Source of the DNA: an uncultured Bacilli bacterium
Lineage (GTDB): Bacteria > Bacillota_I > Bacilli_A > RF39 > UBA660
DNA length: 64,000 nucleotides
NCBI GenBank assembly: GCA_944350495.1
Contig: CALVOZ010000004.1
Location: 77,564 to 141,563, forward strand
Direction: 5' to 3'
Of the stretch, positions 13,582-47,374 are shown one piece after another. Each line of letters starts with the position of its first letter. Position 1 is the stretch's first letter. The position numbers were made by a program, and so were the translations under genes. A model generated the notes under the pieces. It saw nothing but the letters and a program-made list of their open reading frames with translations, was not told the origin of the DNA and did not search any database.

Positions 13582-14403
13582 TTATTTTTGGCATACTTTA
13601 CAGTAGTAAGTGCCTCTTCCACCCACAACAATTTTAGTAATTGGATATCCACAATTAGGACACATTTCACCATTTTTATTGTGCACTAATAAGTTATTTT
13701 GAAATCTGCCGTGAACTCCTTCACTAGATTCATAGGATTTAATAGTTGTTCCCCCTAATTCAATAGCTTTCTCTAAAATAGATCTCGTATTTGCAATAAT
13801 ACTTTTGCATTCCTTATTAGTTAAAGTAGATGCTACCTTTAAAGGGTTTATCTTAGACAAGAATAAGATTTCATCGGCATAAATATTACCAATTCCTGTA
13901 ATAATTGATTGATCTAATAATAAAGTTTTAATCGGTAATCGCTTACTCTTATATTTTTCTAACAAATAATTACTAGTTAAATTATCATCCCATGGCTCTA
14001 AACCCAATTCTTTTATTTGTTTACACTCATTAATATTATCCTTTTCAATCAATAGCATTCGGCCAAATTTACGAGTATCACGATAACGTAATTCTTCACC
14101 ACTATCTAATTTAAAGATAATATGTTCATGCTTATTAATCTCATCAACATCCTTTTTAATGAAATACTTACCTTCCATTCGAAGATGGCTAAGTAAATAG
14201 TAATTATCTAATTCAAACATTAACCATTTACCTTTCCGTTTTATATCATTAATTTTCTGATTTTTAATTTTTTTCTTAAATTCATTTGATGTTGGATATT
14301 CAATAATATTTTCATATCTTATATCAACATCTATAATTTTTTTATTCAAAATTAATCTTTTTAAAGTATTTCTTACAGTTTCTACTTCTGGTAATTCCGG
14401 CAT
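13582..14403 (-). CDS. mutM: Formamidopyrimidine-DNA glycosylase
   Basis: 273 aa. N-terminal MPELPEVETVR (catalytic Pro2/Glu3), with a C-terminal zinc finger CPNCG...YYCKVCQK. Confidence 0.9.
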   Translation of the reverse strand: MPELPEVETVRNTLKRLILNKKIIDVDIRYENIIEYPTSNEFKKKIKNQKINDIKRKGKWLMFELDNYYLLSHLRMEGKYFIKKDVDEINKHEHIIFKLDSGEELRYRDTRKFGRMLLIEKDNINECKQIKELGLEPWDDNLTSNYLLEKYKSKRLPIKTLLLDQSIITGIGNIYADEILFLSKINPLKVASTLTNKECKSIIANTRSILEKAIELGGTTIKSYESSEGVHGRFQNNLLVHNKNGEMCPNCGYPITKIVVGGRGTYYCKVCQK

Positions 14404-14415
14404 ACTACACCTCTA

Positions 14416-15129
14416 CTATCTTACTTTTCGCTTAATGTCTTCCCTAATTAAATTTCCTGCGCTGCCATCTCCATTTAATGCTTCATCTAGTGTTTGGGTA
14501 ATAGGTTGTTGCATATATATGTATCTTAAGACGTCATCAGCTTCAACATCAAACTCACTCATTCCATTATACACTAAATTGCGTAAATATTCATGAAAAA
14601 GCGCTAAATTCTTTTGAATTAATCTTTGTAGTGGTAAATCTGATTCTTGAATAGTATCAGTCCCATAAAATTTTAATGCTTTTAAAGTACCACTACTTCG
14701 ATGTGATAACATTTGATTAAAGTCATAACCCATATTAGACAGTAACATAATTTCATCACGCATAATTTTTAAGCTTTCTTTTAAGTCTATTCCTTTACCA
14801 TAAAAACTATCAATCCAATCATTTTCTAGATTTTCATAAGCGCATCCACAATACTTACCATCATTATAAATTGGATAACTTGGTAGAATAATTCTCTTAG
14901 TTTTCAATTTTGATAATTTCAAACATGAATCATGTGAAATAGATGTAGTTAATGATGCAAAAAGTTTAATTCGATATTTACCTATGCTGTAAATAGTATT
15001 ACCGTATCCGTCACTCATCATTGTATCATCATCTAATACTATTTCTTTTTTTCCCATTTTGTACATAAAAACACCTCCACATTGCCACAAAATTATTACA
15101 TTATATGATATTTTTATATACGAAGTCAA
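14416..15129 (-). CDS. Hypothetical protein
   Basis: 237 aa ORF. The probable start is the internal Met (MYKMGKKEIVL). No recognisable motif. Confidence 0.45.
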   Translation of the reverse strand: MTSYIKISYNVIILWQCGGVFMYKMGKKEIVLDDDTMMSDGYGNTIYSIGKYRIKLFASLTTSISHDSCLKLSKLKTKRIILPSYPIYNDGKYCGCAYENLENDWIDSFYGKGIDLKESLKIMRDEIMLLSNMGYDFNQMLSHRSSGTLKALKFYGTDTIQESDLPLQRLIQKNLALFHEYLRNLVYNGMSEFDVEADDVLRYIYMQQPITQTLDEALNGDGSAGNLIREDIKRKVR

Positions 15130-15154
15130 GGAAATTTAATAATTTTTTATAAAT

Positions 15155-15190
15155 ATAAAAAAAATTGCTTATGTATAAAGCAATTTTTCT
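15155..15190 (-). terminator. Terminator after the EF-Tu-fragment operon
   Basis: attgctt-atgtata-aagcaat hairpin, with a T-run on the minus transcript directly after the stop at 15191. Confidence 0.6.
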
Positions 15191-15964
15191 TTAATAAACT
15201 CTAGTTATTTTTCCACTACCGACTGTCTTTCCGCCTTCTCTTATTGAAATTTCCATGCCCTTTTCCATAGCAACTGAAGTTTCTAGATTAATCATAACTT
15301 TAGCAGATTCGCCAGGGTTAACACTATCAACACCATCAAGTAAAGTTGTTTTTCCCTTTATTCCAATAGTTTCAAAATAGAACTCAGGTTGATATTCATT
15401 ATATATTGGAGTTTTTCTCCCTCCAACATCACTCGTGTACAATGTTATTTCTGCTTCAAATTTTTTAGAAGAAATAATTGAATTTGGTTGTGCTAAAACT
15501 TGTCCTCGTTGAACTTGATTTCTTTCTACATCTTTTAAAATCAGTCCAACTTCATCTCCCATTATAGCATAATCATTTTCTGAGCGAAATTTATCAATAC
15601 TTATAACAGTTGTCGTTATTATTTTTTGATCTAAACCAATTATTTGAACTGTATCACCAATATTTATTTTCCCTCTTACAACTGTACCAGTTACAACTGT
15701 ACCACGATCTGTAATTGTAAATACATCTTCAATTGGAAAAAGAAAAGCACCATTTTCATCATATGTTAAATTAACATTTTTATCAAGTTTTCCATTTATA
15801 GTTTCGTCATAAGAATAATTGTCATCAACATTATTATTCTCATTTACTTTCTTACTATCTTCTTTTGTACCACAGCCAATTAAAACAAACACACATAATA
15901 ATGAAACGGTTAACATCAACATTTTGTGTGCAAATACAAATTTCTTTTGATTATAATTTTTCAC
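15191..15964 (-). CDS. Lipoprotein consisting of EF-Tu domain II and domain III
   Basis: 257 aa, GTG start with RBS AAAGGAG overlapping the upstream stop. Signal peptide with lipobox LIGC (MLMLTVSLLCVFVLIGCG). The mature part aligns with EF-Tu domain II (FLFPIEDVFTITDRGTVVTGTVVRGKINIGDTVQIIG...RGQVLAQP) and domain III (KFEAEITLYTSDVGGRKTPIYNEYQPEFYFET...REGGKTVGSGKITRV). Confidence 0.7.
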   Translation of the reverse strand: MKNYNQKKFVFAHKMLMLTVSLLCVFVLIGCGTKEDSKKVNENNNVDDNYSYDETINGKLDKNVNLTYDENGAFLFPIEDVFTITDRGTVVTGTVVRGKINIGDTVQIIGLDQKIITTTVISIDKFRSENDYAIMGDEVGLILKDVERNQVQRGQVLAQPNSIISSKKFEAEITLYTSDVGGRKTPIYNEYQPEFYFETIGIKGKTTLLDGVDSVNPGESAKVMINLETSVAMEKGMEISIREGGKTVGSGKITRVY

Positions 15965-15977
15965 AATAAATACTCCT

Positions 15978-16958
15978 TTAATCTAAAATTTCATCGACAA
16001 ATCCAACAGCTACAATACGTTCTCCCTCGCAAAGTTGAACTTTCATTCCTTTATTTACTTCTACACTGCTATCAAGATGTATATTTATGTCTACATCATT
16101 CCCCGGTGCAACTAATTCAATATTATCTATTAATTCAACTTTACCTTGAACACTATCTTTACCTATTTTTATAGTTGGTTGATAATTATTGAAAAATGGA
16201 GTATGACGCCCTCCTTCATCAGCTGTTAAAGCATAAATATGTGCTTTAAATTTTTTTGTTGGAACTTTTTCTTCATTTTGTGATAATGGTTCTAACCACT
16301 CGTCAGTTTCTTTCATCAACTGTTCAATGCTTTGTTCAGCTTCTTTATCACCTTCAATAGCTTTAAGTGCTGAACCTCTAACTATTGGTGTATTAGAACC
16401 ATCAAAGCCATATTCGTTCAATAAATCACGTATATCATATTCAATTTGATCTAATACTTTATCATCTTTAACTAAATCACATTTGTTGATATAAACTACA
16501 ATTTTGGGAACTCCAATTTGACTTATCAACTTCACTTGTTCATAAGTTTCAGGCATTAATCCTTCTGTAGCAGACACAACCAATATAGCGCCATCTAATT
16601 TAATATCCCCTGAAATAATGCCTTTTATATAATCTTCATTACTAGGCATATCAAAATGAATGTATTTTTTTGATTTTGTCACATATTCTGTTTTGAAATA
16701 ATTATAAACTACACCATCAGCTTCAGTTGATATAACTGAACTATCAATTTCATTGGTACTTACATAATCTCCATACATTTTTGTTATTGCGGATGTCAAA
16801 GTTGTCTTACCATGATCTTCATTTCCAATAACTGCAATGGTTACATTATCGTTATTTTTTTTATTATCCTTATTATTAAATATAACAAATGCTAGTGCTG
16901 ATAAAATCACTGCTAACGATATACCAATTATAATAAATTTATTTTTATTATTATTCAT
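15978..16958 (-). CDS. Signal-anchored degenerate EF-Tu G-domain plus domain III; domain II absent
   Basis: 326 aa. N-terminal MNNNKNKF plus TM (IIIGISLAVILSALAFVIF). G1 GNEDHGKTTL, G4 NKCD and G5 GSAL are conserved. G3 DCPGH is replaced by DMPSN. The protein then runs directly into EF-Tu domain III (KFKAHIYALTADEGGRHTPFFNNYQPTIKIG...). Confidence 0.7.
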   Translation of the reverse strand: MNNNKNKFIIIGISLAVILSALAFVIFNNKDNKKNNDNVTIAVIGNEDHGKTTLTSAITKMYGDYVSTNEIDSSVISTEADGVVYNYFKTEYVTKSKKYIHFDMPSNEDYIKGIISGDIKLDGAILVVSATEGLMPETYEQVKLISQIGVPKIVVYINKCDLVKDDKVLDQIEYDIRDLLNEYGFDGSNTPIVRGSALKAIEGDKEAEQSIEQLMKETDEWLEPLSQNEEKVPTKKFKAHIYALTADEGGRHTPFFNNYQPTIKIGKDSVQGKVELIDNIELVAPGNDVDINIHLDSSVEVNKGMKVQLCEGERIVAVGFVDEILD

Positions 16959-17018
16959 TTCTATTTCCTCCTATTATTATTTTCAGTATTATTATAACAT
17001 ATATTTATAGCAATTCCC

Positions 17019-17050
17019 CCAAAAAAAAACGATTTATAAAATCGTTTTTT
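17019..17050 (-). terminator. Terminator after rpmA
   Basis: aaacgattt-ataaa-atcgttt hairpin flanked by A and T runs, immediately after the rpmA stop (17049-17051). Confidence 0.65.
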
Positions 17051-17345
17051 AAATTTCTGGATAAACACTTACTTGTTTTTTATCTCTTCCAACACGTTCA
17101 AATTTTACATATCCGCTTACTTTAGCGTATACTGTATCATCTGATCCAATTCCAACGTTATGTCCTGGATAAATTTTAGTTCCTCTTTGACGATATAATA
17201 TAGAACCACCAGATACATATTCACCATCGGCAGCTTTAGCTCCTAATCTTTTAGAAATTGAATCACGGCCGTTTTTAGTTGAACCTTGACCTTTTTTATG
17301 AGCGAATAATTGGATATTTAATGTCATCAACTTCATAGATGGCAC
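17049..17345 (-). CDS. rpmA: Ribosomal protein L27 with N-terminal propeptide
   Basis: 98 aa. [23 protein letters not shown]. The Firmicute Prp cleavage motif precedes the conserved AHKKG. Confidence 0.95.
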
Positions 17346-17352
17346 CTCCCTA

Positions 17353-17658
17353 TCATATTTTAATTTTCACATATTCTTTATATTCTTCAGCAAGATTTTG
17401 TAATAAATTAATCATATTATTAATCAACTTATCTATTACTTCACTATGCTTTATAATACCGATTTCTAATAATCCTTCAGCTTCACTATATACTACACAT
17501 TCCTCATCAATACTAATTAAAGCATTTACGGTAGTTATAGTTATGCAAGATACAGATGCACATACAATGTCATACCCTTCTTCCGCGTATTCAGCATGTC
17601 CTGATATCTTGATGTAATTAATACTATCGTTTTTTTCTTTTACTTCAATATTAATCAT
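17353..17658 (-). CDS. prp: Ribosomal-processing cysteine protease Prp
   Basis: 101 aa. GHAEY...DIVCASVS (His/Cys dyad of the DUF464/Prp family), lying between rplU and rpmA. Confidence 0.85.
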
Positions 17659-17662
17659 TTTC

Positions 17663-17965
17663 TTATTTTACTTTTATAGATTTAATTTCAATTTTTGTAT
17701 ATGGTTGACGATGTCCTTGTTTTCTACGGTAATTCTTTTTAGAATTGTATTTATAAACGATAATTTTTTTGTTTTTACCATGCTTAACAATTTCACCTGT
17801 AACAACAGCACCTGCTAAATAAGGATATCCAACTTTGTCATTTACCATTAAAACTTTATCAAATTCAACTGTTTTACCAGCTTCACCTTCTAATTTTTCT
17901 ACATAAATGATTGATCCTTCTTCAACAAAATATTGTTTTCCACCAGTTTCAATAACTGCTTTCAT
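17663..17965 (-). CDS. rplU: Ribosomal protein L21
   Basis: 100 aa. [17 protein letters not shown]..., a typical L21. Confidence 0.95.
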
Positions 17966-17984
17966 TTTATCCTCCTTTTAATCT

Positions 17985-18065
17985 AAGACTCGCCATTTAA
18001 GGTAACTCACGTTTTAAAACCTTCTCAGTGCGGTTGTAGAATGAGGCTCTACACAGTATTAAATT
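17985..18065 (-). promoter_or_regulatory. Putative rplU 5' leader (L21-leader-like structured element)
   Basis: GC-enriched patch (gcggttgtagaatgaggctctacac...) in an otherwise AT-rich intergenic region, just upstream of the rplU RBS AAAGGAGGAT. The position matches the Firmicute L21 leader. Structure not verified. Confidence 0.35.
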
Positions 18066-18119
18066 TTAACACACTTACCTTTTTTTGTCAAACAAAATAA
18101 GTATTTTTAATATCAAAAT

Positions 18120-18158
18120 ATCAAAAAAAGATTCTCTTTTGAAAATCTTTTGATATTT
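18120..18158 (-). terminator. Terminator after the transglutaminase-like gene
   Basis: aaagatt-ctcttttgaa-aatcttt hairpin, with a T-run on the minus transcript. Confidence 0.55.
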
Positions 18159-18159
18159 T

Positions 18160-19251
18160 TTACTTTCTTCTACTAGGAATAAATGGTATTTTTCTTCTAA
18201 TCATACCTGGTACTTTTTCTAATGTAGAAGAAATTTCGTCATATATTTCAGCACTTTCTAAGTAGAACTGTTCTAATAAATCCTCGTTATCACGACACAT
18301 TTTTAACGTTTCTAAATATATTCTTCGATATTCTTGCATATCAATAGTGGGCATTTTTAATGTTTCATTAATTTCTCTCAAACTTGAATTTTTATTAACC
18401 ATCCCCATTGCTCTATTTATTAAAAGAGAAACAGGACTATATATCATATCTGCAGTTGGATTATTTGGAGTAACCAATTTTCTTCCTTGTGGTATTAAAA
18501 TTCCATCATTCATACCATCCAATACATATGATTTACCTTCATATCTAACTAAAGTAATCATGTGATTACTAATTCTAATTTTACCTGTCAAGGTTGATAT
18601 AAATTTAGCAAATCTAGCTCCCGATGGATCTTTCTCAACAATAGTAGGACATAATTTATCTAAACCAGCAATAGATTTTTTAGTAGCATTTACAGTAATA
18701 CTATCACTAGCATAACCCAATTTTTGATAAATATCAGTTAAGTGCTCAGCTACTGAACGACATACTCCATATCCTCCAATTACATCTGCACCATAATTTT
18801 TAGGAATATCTTTTAATTTCATTGAATAAATAAATTTTTGATTGCTTGATAAATATCCATTTCTATATAAATATACATACATAGCAAATACACTAATTGG
18901 TTCATCTAAAGCAAAGTTTTTCATTAATTCTGCTGTATTATCAACAGATTGATGATATAGTGAAGTAATCTTTTTAGCTTCTTCAGTTCTAGAATCTAGA
19001 AAAGCTCCTCCCAAAAATTCAGCATAAAGAGATGCACTAATTAAAGATGAAACAACACCGATATCCTTATTTTGACTTAATGCTTGGGATGCTCGTAACA
19101 TATATTCAGGCATTGCTTCCATATTATTTAATACTTCACTCACTTGTTCAGGCGTAAATCCTGTTGAAAGACTTAGTGATGCAATAGAGGTACAACTTAA
19201 TAACAAAACTAATTCAGTTGCACGTATCACTTGTAAATCTTGTGCTTTCAT
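18160..19251 (-). CDS. Transglutaminase-like (papain-fold) cysteine peptidase family protein
   Basis: 363 aa. GGYGVCRSVAEHLTDIY (GxCxxxA core) followed by a conserved His (NHMITLVRYEG) and Asp (LDGMND). Confidence 0.5.
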   Translation of the reverse strand: MKAQDLQVIRATELVLLLSCTSIASLSLSTGFTPEQVSEVLNNMEAMPEYMLRASQALSQNKDIGVVSSLISASLYAEFLGGAFLDSRTEEAKKITSLYHQSVDNTAELMKNFALDEPISVFAMYVYLYRNGYLSSNQKFIYSMKLKDIPKNYGADVIGGYGVCRSVAEHLTDIYQKLGYASDSITVNATKKSIAGLDKLCPTIVEKDPSGARFAKFISTLTGKIRISNHMITLVRYEGKSYVLDGMNDGILIPQGRKLVTPNNPTADMIYSPVSLLINRAMGMVNKNSSLREINETLKMPTIDMQEYRRIYLETLKMCRDNEDLLEQFYLESAEIYDEISSTLEKVPGMIRRKIPFIPSRRK

Positions 19252-40301: not shown

Positions 40302-41906
40302 TTAAATTACACCTGATGTATATAATAATGCATATACAACAAAAAGAATAAATACAAGTACTACTGCACCAACAACTAGAATTATTTTTTTGTTTTTAGC
40401 GCCTGGGTCTTTATTTACTACTAAAGAAGTATTACTTTTATCATCATCCTTATTTACACCCATATTATTTAATAACAGTTGAGCAACTTGAGTAAAGTTA
40501 CCATCAATAGGTAATGACGTATTTGCTCTAGTTATATCTTTACCTGCAACAATAAATGGTGTCTTCTGTGAAAAGTCGATTTGTTCATTAGTTTTTGTCA
40601 AAAATAATTCTTTTTTCATTCCATATAATGATGTACAATATAATGTATAATCTTTAGCAACTGAATGAGTATAAGCTACGTTCAAACATCTATCTATAGC
40701 TGTCATATTTTGCCTTAATTGATCAATGGTTAATTTATCTACTTTATCGTTAAATAAGTCACAATCAGCTATAATTAAATCAAAAGTTCCTTGATCTATA
40801 TAAGCACCTAAATATTGAGCCATTAAATCAAATCTTTTGGTTTTATCTGCAATTGGCCATACACTTAAATTAGATTTAAATTCTGTTCTAAAACCGTTTA
40901 AACATTTACTTATATATCCTATTCTATCTTGATCAGCTATGATTAAGACTTTTTTATCTTCAGGAATATCTTTAAAGAAATAATTATCTGGTAAACTACT
41001 TTCAAATCCATATGGAATATTTTGATTCCCATCTATTTCAAATAATGAATTAATCATAATTTGTAATGGAAATTTACCTACAGGGAAGTATTGTTCTGGA
41101 TGTTGTATAATGTCTAAATATTCAGCTCCTAGTTCATTATCATAGTTAAACATTAACACCGAATCGTATGATTTAATAATATTTTCGCGAACAGTCAAGA
41201 AAGCCCCCATATTGTCATCATTTTCTTTAGCTTGATACTTCTTATCAATAGTATCTTCATAATTAGACCATACTTCACCAACACCACTTACTATCATACG
41301 ATAATAAGCTATTTTTTCATCTTTACCCGCATCTGTTAAATATTTACGTCCAGCTATTGAAACAATTCTACAATTTGGAATATCTGTCATAACATGGTAT
41401 TTTAAGTTTTTTAAGAACGTAGATGATACTTTCATATCCTTAACACTATTATCGCCTAAAAATACATGGATATTTATTTGTTTTACACCCTTTCTTGAAG
41501 CATATAAACAAAAGTTTTTTAATTGTTTAAATTGGCTATCTTCAGTTCGCTCTCCAATTGAAAACAATACATGTAACCTTGAATCATTTTTTAATGCATA
41601 ATTGATAGTAGCTGAAATAACTGGATTAGTATAAAAGGTTGTATCATCCATTTTTGCTTGAATTACATTAGCTTTTTTATTTGGTTTACCAAATGAACTA
41701 AATACTGAGTATCCGGCTTTAAAACTTGATAACTGTCCTTTATTTAATCCTACTTCTGTTCCACTAGCAAATACACTAGCAAATGGATAATAATTTGATA
41801 TTTTATCCAAAGAAGGCATTAATGCAGCTTTATAAATATTAAAAGAACGTGGTACTTCTAACCCAAATCCATTCATAAGAAATAATACTGATTTTTTTGT
41901 TTCCAT
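40302..41906 (-). CDS. Degenerate 2,3-bisphosphoglycerate-independent phosphoglycerate mutase paralog with C-terminal TM anchor
   Basis: 534 aa. The N-terminus aligns with iPGM (LFLMNGFGL vs LCIMDGVGE; GQLSSFKAGY vs GNSEVGHTNIG), but the metal-binding Asp and catalytic Ser context are lost. The C-terminal KKIILVVGAVVLVFILFVVYALLY is a tail anchor. Confidence 0.55.
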   Translation of the reverse strand: METKKSVLFLMNGFGLEVPRSFNIYKAALMPSLDKISNYYPFASVFASGTEVGLNKGQLSSFKAGYSVFSSFGKPNKKANVIQAKMDDTTFYTNPVISATINYALKNDSRLHVLFSIGERTEDSQFKQLKNFCLYASRKGVKQINIHVFLGDNSVKDMKVSSTFLKNLKYHVMTDIPNCRIVSIAGRKYLTDAGKDEKIAYYRMIVSGVGEVWSNYEDTIDKKYQAKENDDNMGAFLTVRENIIKSYDSVLMFNYDNELGAEYLDIIQHPEQYFPVGKFPLQIMINSLFEIDGNQNIPYGFESSLPDNYFFKDIPEDKKVLIIADQDRIGYISKCLNGFRTEFKSNLSVWPIADKTKRFDLMAQYLGAYIDQGTFDLIIADCDLFNDKVDKLTIDQLRQNMTAIDRCLNVAYTHSVAKDYTLYCTSLYGMKKELFLTKTNEQIDFSQKTPFIVAGKDITRANTSLPIDGNFTQVAQLLLNNMGVNKDDDKSNTSLVVNKDPGAKNKKIILVVGAVVLVFILFVVYALLYTSGVI

Positions 41907-43113: not shown

Positions 43114-43689
43114 TTAGTTTGTCAAAAAGTCATTGTTTTTAGTCTTTTTCTTAGAACAAAACTCTACTACTTTTAAAATTATTAAATATAAATATGTAAT
43201 AAATAAAATTATATTTCCAACAATTACTATTGGTGCTATATTGCCTACTACTAAAGTAAAATCATTGTAAACTATATTAGAAATGTAAAATGAGTAAATT
43301 AAGTTACTTAAAGTTAAAACTAATGATATGAGCATTATAAATTTAGTAGCCGTACTAGTTTTAGAACTATTAATAAATATATGCATTATTAATATGCCAA
43401 TAATAACATTCCAATAATAGAAAAAAATATTTTGATAAAAATGAATATTAAATATTGTATCTATATGTTCAATTAAATCTAATCCTCTAAAATAGAATGT
43501 CGCCAATAACGAAAAGACAAATGTAAAAAATGTTATAATAAATGCTTGTTTCGTATTAAGATTGACAAAAATAATTAAACCATAAACTACAGTTGCTGCT
43601 AATATATAATAAATAAAACGATAATCAAACATTAAGGTTTGATATAGGTTAATAGCTTCTTCTAATGTATAATCTAAATAAGTTATCAA
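43114..43689 (-). CDS. Polytopic membrane protein, hypothetical
   Basis: 191 aa, about 5 TM. It overlaps the gpmI end by 4 nt. Confidence 0.45.
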   Translation of the reverse strand: MITYLDYTLEEAINLYQTLMFDYRFIYYILAATVVYGLIIFVNLNTKQAFIITFFTFVFSLLATFYFRGLDLIEHIDTIFNIHFYQNIFFYYWNVIIGILIMHIFINSSKTSTATKFIMLISLVLTLSNLIYSFYISNIVYNDFTLVVGNIAPIVIVGNIILFITYLYLIILKVVEFCSKKKTKNNDFLTN

Positions 43690-45179
43690 TATAATGCTTC
43701 CCCAGTCATTTCTTTTGGTTGTTCTAAGTCAAGTAATTTTAACATAGTTGGTGCTATATCTCCTAATTTACCATTTTTTAGAACTATGCCTTCTTTAGTT
43801 ACAATAAATGGTACTAATGATGTTGAATGACTTGTAATAACATTATTATTATCATCTAACATATAATCACTATTACCATGATCAGCAGTAACTATTAAAG
43901 TCCCACCTAGTTCCATTACTTTTTTATATACTTTACCTATGCATTCATCTACAACTTCAACAGCTTTGACAGTCGCATCAAATACTCCAGTATGGCCAAC
44001 CATATCTCCATTAGCATAATTCATTATTACAACATCATATTTATCAATAATACTTAATAATTTATCAGTTATTAAATAAGCACTCATTTCTGGTTTTAAA
44101 TCGTAAGTGGCAACCTTTGGTGAAGGAATTAAAATCTTTTCACAACCTTTAATTTCCTTTTCAACACCACCATCAAAGAAATAAGTTACATGAGCATATT
44201 TCTCTGTTTCAGATATTCTTAATTGTTTTAAATTATGATCACTTAAATAATCACCAATAATATTATCTAATTTCTGTAATTCAAATGCATTAGTGCATAT
44301 TACTTCCTCGCTAACTGGCATCATTGTTACTAATTTTATATTATTCAATAATTTAGTCTCAAAACCTTTAAAATTAGGATTTGTTAAAGCTGAGAATAAT
44401 TCTCTTAACCGGTCAGGTCGATAATTAAATACAATTATACCATCATTATCATCAACTATTCCTTCTTTATCTAAGATAGCCGGTATAATAAATTCATCAT
44501 AGATATCTTTAGCATAATTACTATCAATTACCTCTTTTGCAGTTTTATATTCTTCGGCTTTGCCATAGACTATAGCATCATAACTTTTCACTAGTCTATC
44601 CCAATTGTTATCTCGGTCCATTGCATAGTATCTTCCACTTATAGTTACTAATTTACCCTTATTTATTTCTTTTATTTTGTTTTCTAATTGTTGTATATAG
44701 TTATAAGCAACATTAGGTAATGTATCACGTCCATCTAAGAAAATATGAAAATATATTTCGTTTACATTATTTTTAATGCACATATCAATAATACCCATTA
44801 AATGATTAATATGAGAGTGTATTCCCCCATCACTTAATAACCCCATTATATGAAGTTTTGAATTATTCTCCTTAGTATGGTTAATAACATTTAAAATATT
44901 TTTATTCTCTAAAATAGAACCATCTTTGATTTTTTCAGTTATTAATTGTAATGGTTGATATACAATTCTCCCTGCCCCAATATTTGTATGGCCCACTTCA
45001 CTATTTCCCATTTGACCATCAGGAAGCCCTACTTTAGAGCCACTCGCTTCAAGTAATGAATAGCCATATTTTTCTTTTAACATATCTAAATTTGGTGTGT
45101 GAGCTGCTTTAACTGCATTTCCGTGTGTCTCTTCTCTTTCTCCTACACCGTCCATTATACATAGTACTAATGGTTTCAT
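43686..45179 (-). CDS. gpmI: 2,3-bisphosphoglycerate-independent phosphoglycerate mutase
   Basis: 497 aa. MDGVGEREETHGNAV...GNSEVGHTNIGAGR...the typical iPGM. Confidence 0.93.
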   Translation of the reverse strand: MKPLVLCIMDGVGEREETHGNAVKAAHTPNLDMLKEKYGYSLLEASGSKVGLPDGQMGNSEVGHTNIGAGRIVYQPLQLITEKIKDGSILENKNILNVINHTKENNSKLHIMGLLSDGGIHSHINHLMGIIDMCIKNNVNEIYFHIFLDGRDTLPNVAYNYIQQLENKIKEINKGKLVTISGRYYAMDRDNNWDRLVKSYDAIVYGKAEEYKTAKEVIDSNYAKDIYDEFIIPAILDKEGIVDDNDGIIVFNYRPDRLRELFSALTNPNFKGFETKLLNNIKLVTMMPVSEEVICTNAFELQKLDNIIGDYLSDHNLKQLRISETEKYAHVTYFFDGGVEKEIKGCEKILIPSPKVATYDLKPEMSAYLITDKLLSIIDKYDVVIMNYANGDMVGHTGVFDATVKAVEVVDECIGKVYKKVMELGGTLIVTADHGNSDYMLDDNNNVITSHSTSLVPFIVTKEGIVLKNGKLGDIAPTMLKLLDLEQPKEMTGEALY

Positions 45180-47092: not shown

Positions 47093-47374
47093 CTATTGAT
47101 CTTTTACTAAATCAGCAATTAATTCTTTAATTGCATTTGTATATACAAATACTGCTTCAACAAAATCAGCCTCTGTCGCTCCACTTTTCTTTAAATCTAG
47201 TATTTCACGATTAAATAAAGTTTTGACATGTTTTCCTTTTTTTTCATTTAAAGCATTTAAGACTGCTAATAATTCTTCTAGTTCTTTTTCAACTAAATCT
47301 TTTTTTTCTTGTAAAGGTAAATTTTTATATTTTTCAACATAGTCATTAAATAAATTATCTTCTACGAACTCCAT
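47093..47374 (-). CDS. Hypothetical small acidic protein
   Basis: 93 aa. It overlaps the upstream large gene by 20 nt and is 8 nt from the next gene, so it is in an operon. Confidence 0.35.
   Translation of the reverse strand: MEFVEDNLFNDYVEKYKNLPLQEKKDLVEKELEELLAVLNALNEKKGKHVKTLFNREILDLKKSGATEADFVEAVFVYTNAIKELIADLVKDQ

Follow-up and report, generated by a model that had tools for sequence, protein, structure and literature searches.

Two adjacent genes on the minus strand encode true homologues of EF-Tu: gene A combines the G domain with domain III (DIII), and gene B combines domains II (DII) and III. We lean towards the reading that A and B form a co-expressed pair within an exported EF-Tu-derived family, tethered on the outside of the cytoplasmic membrane and likely to function in binding or adhesion. 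The locus is real and no chance feature, as the same genes are present in independent assemblies and homologous pairs in other lineages. The family is sizeable and apparently undescribed.

Gene order and expression signals

The genes lie in an ordinary chromosomal neighbourhood of the window, by which we mean the whole analysed stretch of 64,000 nucleotides. The host has 27.5% GC, and SpoIVA, a class A PBP and Mur ligases indicate a cell wall and spore formation. The presence of rplU, prp and rpmA, together with the L21 leader, upstream of gene A was confirmed. The following elements were found at the locus.

17021..17050, minus strand: terminator-like hairpin and U-run 3' of rpmA, overlapping the rpmA stop codon (folding: dG -8.6 kcal/mol, z -2.4)
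16991..16999, minus strand: extended -10 promoter-like element TGTTATAAT, 5' of gene A (read from sequence)
16967..16972, minus strand: AGGAGG ribosome-binding site, 8 nt 5' of the gene A ATG (read from sequence)
15978..16958, minus strand: gene A, predicted anchored EF-Tu paralog, 326 aa, comprising the G domain and domain III but not domain II (Pfam, NCBIfam, EF-Tu alignment, AF2, Foldseek)
15973..15977, minus strand: AGGAG ribosome-binding site abutting the gene A TAA, 8 nt ahead of the gene B GTG; the coupling junction (read from sequence)
15191..15964, minus strand: gene B, lipoprotein-type EF-Tu paralog, 257 aa, domains II and III (Pfam, NCBIfam, AF2, Foldseek)
15153..15191, minus strand: terminator-like hairpin and U-run immediately 3' of the gene B stop codon (folding: dG -12.3 kcal/mol, z -4.1, none of 200 shuffles as stable)

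Both minus-strand ORFs were confirmed, with an ATG start in gene A and a GTG start in gene B. A preliminary description of this DNA had provided the pair with its own extended -10 element and AGGAGG box and had bracketed it with terminators. The first two were indeed read in the sequence 5' of gene A, the former being promoter-like, and folding produced hairpins with U-runs 3' of rpmA and 3' of gene B. A consensus terminator scan of positions 14300-18200, which needs at least three G-C pairs, flagged nothing; both hairpins were missed because their stems are AT-rich, and they were revealed, with their U-runs, by folding. The hairpin on the rpmA side stands between the ribosomal-protein operon and gene A. 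The pair would thus have a sigma-A-type promoter of its own between two terminator-like hairpins, and its translation would be coupled.

The 13-nt junction between the genes reads TAA, AGGAG, 8 nt, GTG, in line with the ribosome-binding site over the stop codon and the GTG start described earlier. This junction, and the adjacency of the two genes in four further lineages, bear out the description of a coupled pair. It had also been remarked that the pair occupies the obg slot. The known reference for this slot is the gene order of B. subtilis, with which the remark agrees, and no obg was found among the window ORFs scanned; the observation is uninformative on function.

Domain structure of the two proteins

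The elements of the encoded proteins are as follows.

16881..16937, minus strand: gene A hydrophobic segment, aa 8-26, after MNNNKNK; putative signal anchor, possibly a cleavable signal peptide (sequence scan; AF2 helix aa 3-31)
16293..16847, minus strand: gene A EF-Tu G domain, aa 38-222, retaining G1, G4 and G5 (Pfam, motif check, EF-Tu alignment)
16638..16652, minus strand: gene A degenerate G3 / switch II motif DMPSN, aa 103-107, DCPGH in EF-Tu (sequence)
15987..16262, minus strand: gene A EF-Tu domain III, aa 233-324 (Pfam, EF-Tu alignment)
15872..15964, minus strand: gene B putative lipoprotein signal peptide, aa 1-31, with lipobox L28-I29-G30-C31 (motif; AF2 helix aa 7-30)
15749..15871, minus strand: gene B disordered linker, aa 32-72, Asn/Asp/Glu/Lys-rich, ending in the B-type signature TYDENGAF (pLDDT below 50 for aa 33-53; motif)
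15485..15748, minus strand: gene B EF-Tu domain II, aa 73-160 (Pfam, domain HMMs, Foldseek)
15197..15478, minus strand: gene B EF-Tu domain III, aa 163-256 (Pfam, domain HMMs, Foldseek)

The three Pfam domains of EF-Tu, a search for which the preliminary description had proposed, were all recovered, split across A and B and above their gathering thresholds. Gene A matches GTP_EFTU at aa 38-222 (E 1.8e-32, 112.9 bits) and GTP_EFTU_D3 at aa 233-324 (E 4.4e-17, 62.8 bits), with no Pfam match to GTP_EFTU_D2. In the residue-level alignment with solved EF-Tu, aa 35-228 correspond to EF-Tu 9-205 and aa 231-326 to EF-Tu 299-394. The alignment jumps from EF-Tu 205 to 299, and thus domain II is cleanly excised, as had been proposed. 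Gene B matches GTP_EFTU_D2 at aa 88-158 (E 1.8e-13, 51.1 bits) and GTP_EFTU_D3 at aa 163-256 (E 3.1e-21, 76.1 bits). The AF2 models of A (pLDDT 85) and B (pLDDT 88) both have EF-Tu as the top Foldseek match, with a probability of 1.00; the gene B model superposes on EF-Tu at about 0.9-1.0 Å over about 190 residues.

The catalytic motifs of gene A are partly degenerate. The G1 (GNEDHGKTTL), G4 (NKCD) and G5 (GSAL) motifs are present, and DCPGH has become DMPSN, all as originally read; in addition, switch I has GVVY where EF-Tu has GITI, so that the switch-I threonine (Thr61) is gone. By its motifs gene A would be a pseudo-GTPase, and loss of GTPase activity is predicted.

The basic N-terminus and single transmembrane helix attributed to gene A correspond to its sole hydrophobic segment, aa 8-26 after MNNNKNK, which a polar and disordered linker of about 11 aa follows. 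The product would enter the membrane via Sec and stay there as a type II signal anchor; alternatively, it could be cleaved after A21-L22-A23. Gene B, as described, has the lipobox LIGC fused to domains II and III. A basic n-region MKNYNQKKFVFAHK and a hydrophobic h-region MLMLTVSLLCVFV are followed by L-I-G-C31, which fits the pattern [LVI][ASTVI][GAS]C, and then by a linker of about 40 aa. The lipobox is kept in the gene B copies of two independent assemblies (L007 and L008). The sequence has the characters of a lipoprotein, and the protein is predicted to be lipidated at Cys31.

Compared with housekeeping EF-Tu (TIGR00485 / PRK12736), the domains are homologous, at about 50-55% identity for the G domain and about 45-60% for DII-DIII, and have the same folds. 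However, in A and B they are split across two polypeptides, each one domain short, and carry an N-terminal signal anchor or lipobox and a linker, whereas cytoplasmic EF-Tu has no export signal. In gene A, moreover, G3 and switch I are degenerate, neither DxxG-His84 nor Thr61 being intact. Both proteins fall far below the TIGR00485 equivalog cut-off of 522.4 bits (A 271.7 bits in two stretches, B 196.4 bits).

The family and the recurrence of the pair

The family includes about 90 protein clusters of the B type (anchored proteins with D2 and D3 only). Exhaustive profile search and our own domain HMMs yielded 14 cluster representatives of the A type (TM-G-D3) including gene A, and with L027 there are about 15; this count leaves out two truncated TM+G proteins (P0248, P0333). 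Anchored full-length proteins (TM-G-D2-D3) form at least four clusters in the same searches. Two more candidates, P0249 and P0386, were screened as TM plus full-length; they resemble ordinary or organellar EF-Tu to which unrelated N-terminal extensions have been added, and are uncounted.

Of 91 B-type proteins, about 87 have one strong hydrophobic segment ahead of the domains, a feature that none of the true EF-Tu sequences scanned possesses. The anchors are of three interchangeable types: a TM helix, a zinc ribbon with a TM helix, and a lipobox. N-terminal zinc ribbons were observed in 28 of the 108 members, lipoboxes in gene B and P0193. The N-flank carries a net charge of +2.9 and the C-flank one of +0.2; in 95 of 106 members the N-flank is the more positive. 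The linkers are polar and stalk-like (N 26%, T 13%, E 10%, S 9%), with a median length of about 48 aa and a maximum of 93. The three anchors, the charge bias and the Asn/Thr/Ser-rich linkers thus argue that EF-Tu parts are placed outside the cytoplasm. All anchors would imply an N-in/C-out topology, and gene A, like most of the family, has the single N-terminal helix with a positive, presumably cytoplasmic side that is expected of a type II signal anchor. Export is thereby predicted from motif rules and from the consistency of the family as a whole.

In most A-types G3 is not DxxG, and several have lost G1 and G4. The A-type of L027, however, retains DMPGH and the switch-I Thr; thus degenerate G motifs are common but not universal. 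Many tRNA-contact residues are 85-93% conserved in B-types. Conservation of at least 90% is seen in 9 of 19 tRNA-contact residues and in 52 of 123 EF-Tu-invariant columns, with no clear excess of the former over the conserved-column background in B-types, and so this conservation says little for or against any reading.

The family comes from uncultured gut and rumen Bacilli: in a DNA-motif scan, 18 of 18 matches among the GTDB species representatives were gut or rumen MAGs. The gut-only range may reflect sampling bias. The motif was used in a relaxed form, as a stricter one missed the B-type genes of L004 and L009. The same scan found the window's own gene B in none of the GTDB species representatives.

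The genomic surroundings of family members vary. B-type genes adjoin a serine recombinase (L001), Bro-N/RhuM (L002) and transposases (L004), and the A-type in L034 adjoins an M15 peptidase and PBECR4. The full-length P0243 and the B-type P0122 share one slot, closing a row of anchored proteins with the same tail modules. The only neighbour seen that belongs to the secretion or folding machinery is secA, in one case. The locus L009, like that of the window, is an ordinary chromosomal neighbourhood.

The order A-then-B was found in five lineages at differing chromosomal sites. The first consists of the window and two independent assemblies with the same two genes (L007, L008). The others are L005, where the B gene is interrupted by the contig end; L009-L011, where the pair is located 3' of gatCAB; L027 and L029; and L035, with zinc-ribbon anchors on both genes. 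The preliminary description had proposed to look in related genomes for the pair downstream of rpmA; the pair exists in four further lineages, but there it has other locations, such as the one 3' of gatCAB. When the two genes of one genome are compared, the anchors share 80% or 55% identity, and the DIII domains no more than 43% or 38%.

Selection acts on both genes. The window and L007 are 99% identical, with one to three differences per gene, and dN/dS was therefore calculated from more divergent pairs; it ranges from 0.06 to 0.33 in B and from 0.24 to 0.40 in A, which indicates purifying selection. The pair is not constant: gene A is missing in L020 at the site where L009 carries it, most B-type genes occur without an A gene, and the A-types of L006 and L034 have no adjacent B. 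Thus an obligatory heterodimer is unlikely. Joint rebuilding of all three domains by A and B is not obligatory across the family, in which full-length anchored forms also exist.

Possible function and relation to known systems

GTP, tRNA and ribosomes are absent from the cell exterior, and thus the exported modules would act as non-catalytic binding domains. The conserved core of the family would be DII-DIII. In M. pneumoniae EF-Tu, fibronectin is bound through two regions, aa 192-292 and aa 314-394, and mucin is a ligand of the Lactobacillus protein (PMC6822514). The DII-DIII core would correspond to the fibronectin-binding regions, which makes binding of host matrix, mucus or another extracellular ligand the likeliest role, in effect a genetically hard-wired form of EF-Tu surface moonlighting. 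Gene A would then probably be an accessory partner of B, its G domain docking on DII like in intact EF-Tu, although this is a guess. One observation sits oddly with these suggestions: gene A retains G1, G4 and G5, and the L027 A-type has near-intact motifs, in a place where nucleotides would not be accessible. The exact position of the modules is a further point. The host is walled and the linkers of A and B are short, and therefore the modules may sit beneath the wall and not on the true surface.

Surface EF-Tu of M. pneumoniae, M. hyopneumoniae, S. aureus and Lactobacillus is similar in that EF-Tu sequence is found outside the cell, as predicted for A and B. However, it is the product of a single cytoplasmic tuf gene, reaches the surface by an obscure route and is cleaved post-translationally, whereas A and B are ready-made fragments from separate genes with what appear to be classical export and anchor signals. 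The ability of DII-DIII alone to form a stable ligand-binding unit is seen in the CdiA-CT/CdiI/EF-Tu complex (PDB 5i4q), on which the gene B model superposes with a target-normalised TM-score of 0.93 and rmsd of 1.6 Å; that unit, unlike gene B, was made from cytoplasmic EF-Tu in the laboratory, and the binding occurs within the target cell. In Gram-positive lipoproteins such as PsaA-type adhesins and PrsA, a lipobox and a short linker tether a globular domain to the membrane on its outer side, as proposed for gene B. To our knowledge, their folds are unrelated to EF-Tu, and none derives from a translational GTPase.

Several paralogs with signal peptides (P0281, P0283/P0404, P0296, P0321, P0383) likewise consist of G and DIII without DII and are predicted to be exported. 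However, their signals are of cleavable twin-arginine or Sec types, whereas the Bacilli forms have anchors; the sequences resemble proteins from other, apparently more GC-rich organisms, and no B-type gene lies next to them. P0296 stands in tandem with a normal tuf gene. In the G-domain tree this group branches apart from the anchored forms of Bacilli, and thus it is probably of independent origin. A broader reading, which we put forward tentatively and hold to be possible but doubtful, is that EF-Tu has repeatedly become a dedicated extracytoplasmic protein: in Bacilli as a modular, recombining family in which A and B form a nucleotide-independent surface complex for attachment to host or matrix, and elsewhere, independently, as Tat- or Sec-exported G-DIII proteins.

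No description of anchored or exported EF-Tu paralogs was found in NCBIfam, Pfam, PADLOC, PHROGs or source names, and a search of full-text papers returned general EF-Tu moonlighting and nothing on such paralogs; within these sources, the earlier remark that no such family has been described holds. The PADLOC defence models gave no match, and PHROGs only marginal or irrelevant ones.

Adhesin and decoy functions are hypotheses, and other roles have to be weighed against them. One possibility, which we consider unlikely, is that the proteins are nucleotide-independent holdases, foldases or scaffolds at the membrane-wall interface, similar to PrsA, and not adhesins. EF-Tu has reported chaperone-like activity, and such a role would suit modules that may remain under the peptidoglycan of a walled host on the short linkers of A and B; degenerate GTPase motifs fit an NTP-free extracytoplasmic compartment, and both genes are under purifying selection. 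However, most linkers of the family are long and stalk-like, and no link to the secretion or folding machinery is seen except the single secA neighbour. Moreover, close relatives are polymorphic for the presence and domain composition of these genes, which cluster with other large anchored proteins, and this is typical of surface-interaction genes and not of housekeeping folding factors. The same presence/absence polymorphism would also fit a decoy or shield, whose EF-Tu-like surfaces absorb phage proteins, bacteriocins, contact-dependent toxins or host immune factors. Indeed, EF-Tu DII-DIII is a known docking platform of a CdiA-CT toxin (PDB 5i4q and 7vmc are among the Foldseek matches), and some family genes have mobile or phage-like neighbours (L001, L002, L004, L034). 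We nevertheless regard a decoy as improbable, since the EF-Tu-dependent toxins known so far, like the Lit/Gol exclusion system, work in the cytoplasm, where an external decoy is of no help; no defence model and no meaningful phage family was matched, and the loci of the window and L009 are ordinary chromosomal ones.

It is very improbable that the topology is reversed (N-out/C-in), so that the proteins would be membrane-tethered cytoplasmic factors acting on tRNA, ribosomes or MreB. The nucleotide-binding motifs retained in gene A and nearly complete in the L027 A-type, the conserved tRNA-contact residues of B-types and the lysines that are also present C-terminal of the hydrophobic segment could be understood in this way. 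However, a lipobox, as in gene B and P0193, means export, N-terminal zinc ribbons and tails of 50-100 aa would need to cross the membrane, the charge bias is N-in in the great majority of members, and many A-types have lost G1, G3 and G4. Finally, degenerate GTPase motifs and the absence of one domain from each gene might suggest functionless, decaying tuf duplicates, or an artefact of assembly or gene calling. This we can hardly credit: the ORFs are intact in many independent assemblies and more than 100 clusters, dN/dS is well under 1, each gene has its own predicted export signal, a ribosome-binding site and clean domain boundaries, and the AF2 models are confidently folded. Conservation and selection effectively refute it.

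EF-Tu is among the most often reported surface moonlighting proteins, and two questions about it stand: how cytoplasmic EF-Tu reaches the surface, and whether its extracellular binding is selected. Neither could be settled, given that the sole gene is essential and encodes a protein lacking any export signal. Under the favoured reading of an exported, membrane-tethered pair, EF-Tu domains would here be found on separate, non-essential-looking genes, with classical export signals, purifying selection and decaying catalytic motifs. This would provide a clean genetic handle, as one could produce DII-DIII, follow its localisation, delete it and screen it for ligands without disturbing translation. 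It would also be a rare case of a translational GTPase fold recruited beyond the cytoplasm, and one of domain-level fission into G-DIII and DII-DIII, in which the two genes share anchor cassettes that have been homogenised between them. If EF-Tu has indeed become extracytoplasmic repeatedly, its moonlighting would be a selectable function with dedicated genes. The family may bear on host colonisation by little-known uncultured gut Bacilli.

Domain composition and genomic setting of the two genes

Gene A matches the Pfam domains GTP_EFTU (residues 38-222) and GTP_EFTU_D3 (233-324), and gene B matches GTP_EFTU_D2 (88-158) and GTP_EFTU_D3 (163-256), all four scores being above the gathering thresholds. 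The best NCBIfam matches are EF-Tu models, yet their scores, 271.7 bits for gene A and 196.4 bits for gene B, are far below the cut-off of 522.4 bits. Among solved structures, the best match of gene A is M. pneumoniae EF-Tu; residues 35-228 align with EF-Tu residues 9-205 and residues 231-326 with 299-394, so that exactly domain II (DII) is missing. The AlphaFold2 models (pLDDT 85 for A, 88 for B) both begin with an N-terminal helix, which a linker of low confidence connects to the globular domains. Both match EF-Tu structures in Foldseek, where the gene B model fits DII and domain III (DIII) at about 0.9-1.0 A over some 190 residues. Domains, models and anchors support the structural part of the preliminary description, which had interpreted the genes as EF-Tu fragments with export signals.

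Gene A retains the motifs G1 (GNEDHGKTTL), G4 (NKCD) and G5 (GSAL); DCPGH is changed to DMPSN, and switch-I GITI to GVVY. Judging by these motifs, GTP hydrolysis and state switching should not be expected. No family with the architecture of the two genes is present in Pfam, NCBIfam, PADLOC or PHROGs, and the full-text literature search yielded only moonlighting of the ordinary tuf product and no paper on such an anchored pair. EF-Tu paralogs themselves are known, and the novelty would be in the architecture and the predicted location.

The gene order on the minus strand is as follows.

17976-18045, minus: L21 leader
between the L21 leader and gene A, minus: rplU, prp, rpmA
15978-16958, minus: gene A, 326 aa
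15191-15964, minus: gene B, 257 aa, GTG start
14416-15129, minus: unassigned 237-aa ORF directly 3' of gene B
beyond the 237-aa ORF, minus: fpg, nrdD

A spoIVFA/FB-like pair lies 5' of rplU; obg is absent from all scanned window ORFs. The window (GC content 27.5%) carries RNase P class B, the L21 leader, SpoIVA, a class A PBP, Mur ligases, MraY, FtsW, DivIVA, RecU and a PASTA kinase. The host is a walled, endospore-forming member of Bacillota.

Folding yields an AT-rich hairpin with a U-run overlapping the rpmA stop codon (dG -8.6, z -2.4) and a stronger one 3' of gene B (dG -12.3, z -4.1). Neither was flagged by the rule-based terminator scan, as it demands G-C pairs. Gene A and the first hairpin are separated by a stretch that contains TGTTATAAT and AGGAGG. 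At the A-B junction, AGGAG comes right behind the stop codon of gene A, with 8 nt separating it from the GTG of gene B. At the level of sequence the preliminary description is correct throughout; the hairpins are candidate terminators and TGTTATAAT a candidate promoter of the pair.

The 237-aa ORF has a separate promoter-like site close to consensus (TTGACT, 18 nt, TATAAT at 15129-15100), and searches of Pfam, NCBIfam, PADLOC and PHROGs gave no match for it. This ORF is kept in two other loci, L007 and L008, and was not found beside the pair in other lineages. Six sizeable window ORFs have no Pfam match.

47355-49421: 688 aa
52586-54910: 774 aa
59352-61013: 553 aa
61208-62251: 347 aa
5962-7017: 351 aa
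18160-19251: 363 aa

The 774-aa ORF interrupts the otherwise conserved prkC-rsgA-rpe stretch between rpe and rsgA. Two iPGM-like genes (43686-45179 and 40302-41906) are located about 1.8 kb apart and enclose three small ORFs; the first of the two matches strongly, whereas its divergent counterpart matches iPGM_N only (E 2e-16).

A family of anchored EF-Tu-derived proteins

Database search with gene B produced about 90 clusters of proteins of 250-385 aa containing only DII and DIII (B-type). Three A-type sequences served as queries in an exhaustive profile search; sorting of the hits with custom HMMs for the G domain, DII and DIII identified 14 cluster representatives with a transmembrane (TM) helix, G domain and DIII (A-type), gene A included; the truncated TM-G proteins P0248 and P0333 were left out of this count. 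One more example was found in locus L027. Full-length anchored paralogs, TM-G-DII-DIII, form four clusters (P0243, P0257, P0280, P0311). In P0174, P0177 and P0178 (385 aa) a TM helix is followed by DIII, an Asn/Ser-rich linker, DII and DIII. The source names do not go beyond "hypothetical protein [Bacilli bacterium]" or an erroneous "elongation factor Tu". DII-DIII forms the family's conserved core.

Scanning GTDB species representatives with the B-type-specific junction motif YDxxGxFLxx[IV][ED][DE]VF revealed 18 loci, all in gut or rumen MAGs titled mostly Bacilli or Tenericutes. Several MAGs of the B-type carriers L017, L021, L024, L018, L015, L023 and L026 are titled Muribaculaceae, Lachnospiraceae, Agathobacter or Actinomycetes. 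The B-type genes and flanks there resemble the low-GC Bacilli family, and these contigs are probably mis-binned or the MAGs mislabelled.

The G motifs of A-type proteins are decaying: in most of them G3 departs from DxxG, and several have lost G1 and G4, but in the A-type protein of L027 DMPGH and the switch-I Thr persist. Both types are under purifying selection, with dN/dS of 0.06-0.33 (B-type) and 0.24-0.40 (A-type). In the neighbor-joining tree of G domains, which is indicative only, A-type and full-length anchored proteins are intermixed on long branches outside the tight housekeeping clade, gene A grouping with P0243.

The exhaustive search also retrieved five G-DIII proteins lacking DII (P0281, P0283, P0296, P0321, P0383) with twin-arginine-like or Sec-like signal peptides, the patterns being TRRxF[LM], TRRELLKG or Sec-like.

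P0281: signal TRREFL
P0283 (P0404/P0283), L032 5001-6038: signal TRRELLKG
P0296, L033 5001-6014: signal TRRHFM

P0296 is directly 3' of a normal 391-aa tuf in the tuf-secE-nusG-rplK-rplA locus. In the same indicative tree they are placed away from the anchored forms of Bacilli. Proteins derived from EF-Tu may thus have become exported on more than one occasion, the origin here being apparently an independent one.

Anchors and pairing

In nearly all of the approximately 90 B-type clusters DII is preceded by exactly one strongly hydrophobic segment; true EF-Tu sequences lack such a segment. Three independent anchor classes agree on the direction of export. The lipobox of gene B and P0193 implies export, and a cytoplasmic zinc ribbon (two CxxC motifs, 28/108 family members, about a quarter) or a Gln/Asn/Pro-rich tail of 50-100 aa before a single TM helix implies N-in/C-out topology. 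The positive-inside rule agrees with this: the net charge is +2.9 in the N-flank versus +0.2 in the C-flank, with 95 of 106 members having the more positive charge in the N-flank. The segment between anchor and first domain (median 48 aa) is of low complexity (N 26%, T 13%, E 10%, S 9%, D 8.5%) and predicted to be disordered. The hydrophobic segment of gene A could instead be a signal peptide cleaved after A-L-A (residues 21-23).

In L001 (781-6849) and L012 (426-7196) the EF-Tu-like gene, encoding B-type P0122 and full-length P0243 respectively, is the fourth and last of consecutive anchored-protein genes. The four genes of each row draw on one set of cytoplasmic tail modules, in which a TM helix comes after either a zinc ribbon or "MNQNNNY(N/S)FDPMTGQPI...KK"; 33 of 108 family members carry the latter motif.

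An A-type gene directly precedes a B-type gene in five settings.

Window and near-identical relatives
L005: B gene runs off the contig end, its start being a typical B-type tail
L009-L011: after gatCAB, 15-bp gap
L027, L029: 8-bp gap
L035: zinc-ribbon anchors on both, A-type without even G1

Most B-type genes stand alone, and L006 and L034 have an A-type gene with no adjacent B. The idea of the preliminary description that the pair reconstitutes EF-Tu is plausible, although not general. The stand-alone A-type gene P0244 (L034, 1380-3783) has Peptidase_M15 and PBECR4 nuclease-like neighbours, and so this region may be mobile or phage-derived.

Within a genome, the anchor and linker of A and B are far more alike than DIII: 80% versus 43% identity in L027 (4461-6642; also L029) and 55% versus 38% in L009 (6001-8004). 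The anchors are thus shared or homogenised, which suggests gene conversion or recombination. In MAG RGIG1688 the same A-B pair is present on two contigs, either by real duplication or redundant assembly. L020 (5887-7479), a close relative of L009 (5179-8004), has the same neighbourhood (gatCAB, small membrane protein, B-type gene, 500-aa protein) and lacks the A-type gene at this site; the 5' end of its B gene is altered, as expected from deletion between similar anchors.

Possible role

Homology and architecture, anchors, conserved pairing and purifying selection are established here. We suggest that both proteins would be exported and come to lie on the membrane's outer face and, GTPase function presumably being lost, would have a non-catalytic binding role outside the cytoplasm, A being accessory to B.

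Other explanations have to be weighed. Reversed topology would have to be reconciled with the concordant anchors, and the possibility that the genes are relics without function is to be set, beside the decay of G motifs, against the selection on both types. The proteins might also act at the membrane-wall interface as a holdase or scaffold that needs no nucleotide, or be a decoy for EF-Tu-binding proteins of phages or toxins. Surface binding itself is opposed by the retention of some nucleotide motifs and by the short window linkers, only about 11 aa (A) and 40 aa (B) in a walled cell. On the other hand, the family core DII-DIII coincides with the regions for which fibronectin binding has been reported in M. 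pneumoniae EF-Tu, residues 192-292 and 314-394 (PMC6822514), EF-Tu of gut lactobacilli binds mucin and epithelial cells (PMC6822514), and DII-DIII alone is a stable docking unit in PDB 5i4q. Stalk-like linkers, clustering with anchored proteins, polymorphism in presence and domain composition, and the host-associated distribution point the same way. Hence the best reading is that the family may represent a dedicated, gene-encoded version of EF-Tu surface moonlighting, in which A would be accessory to B.
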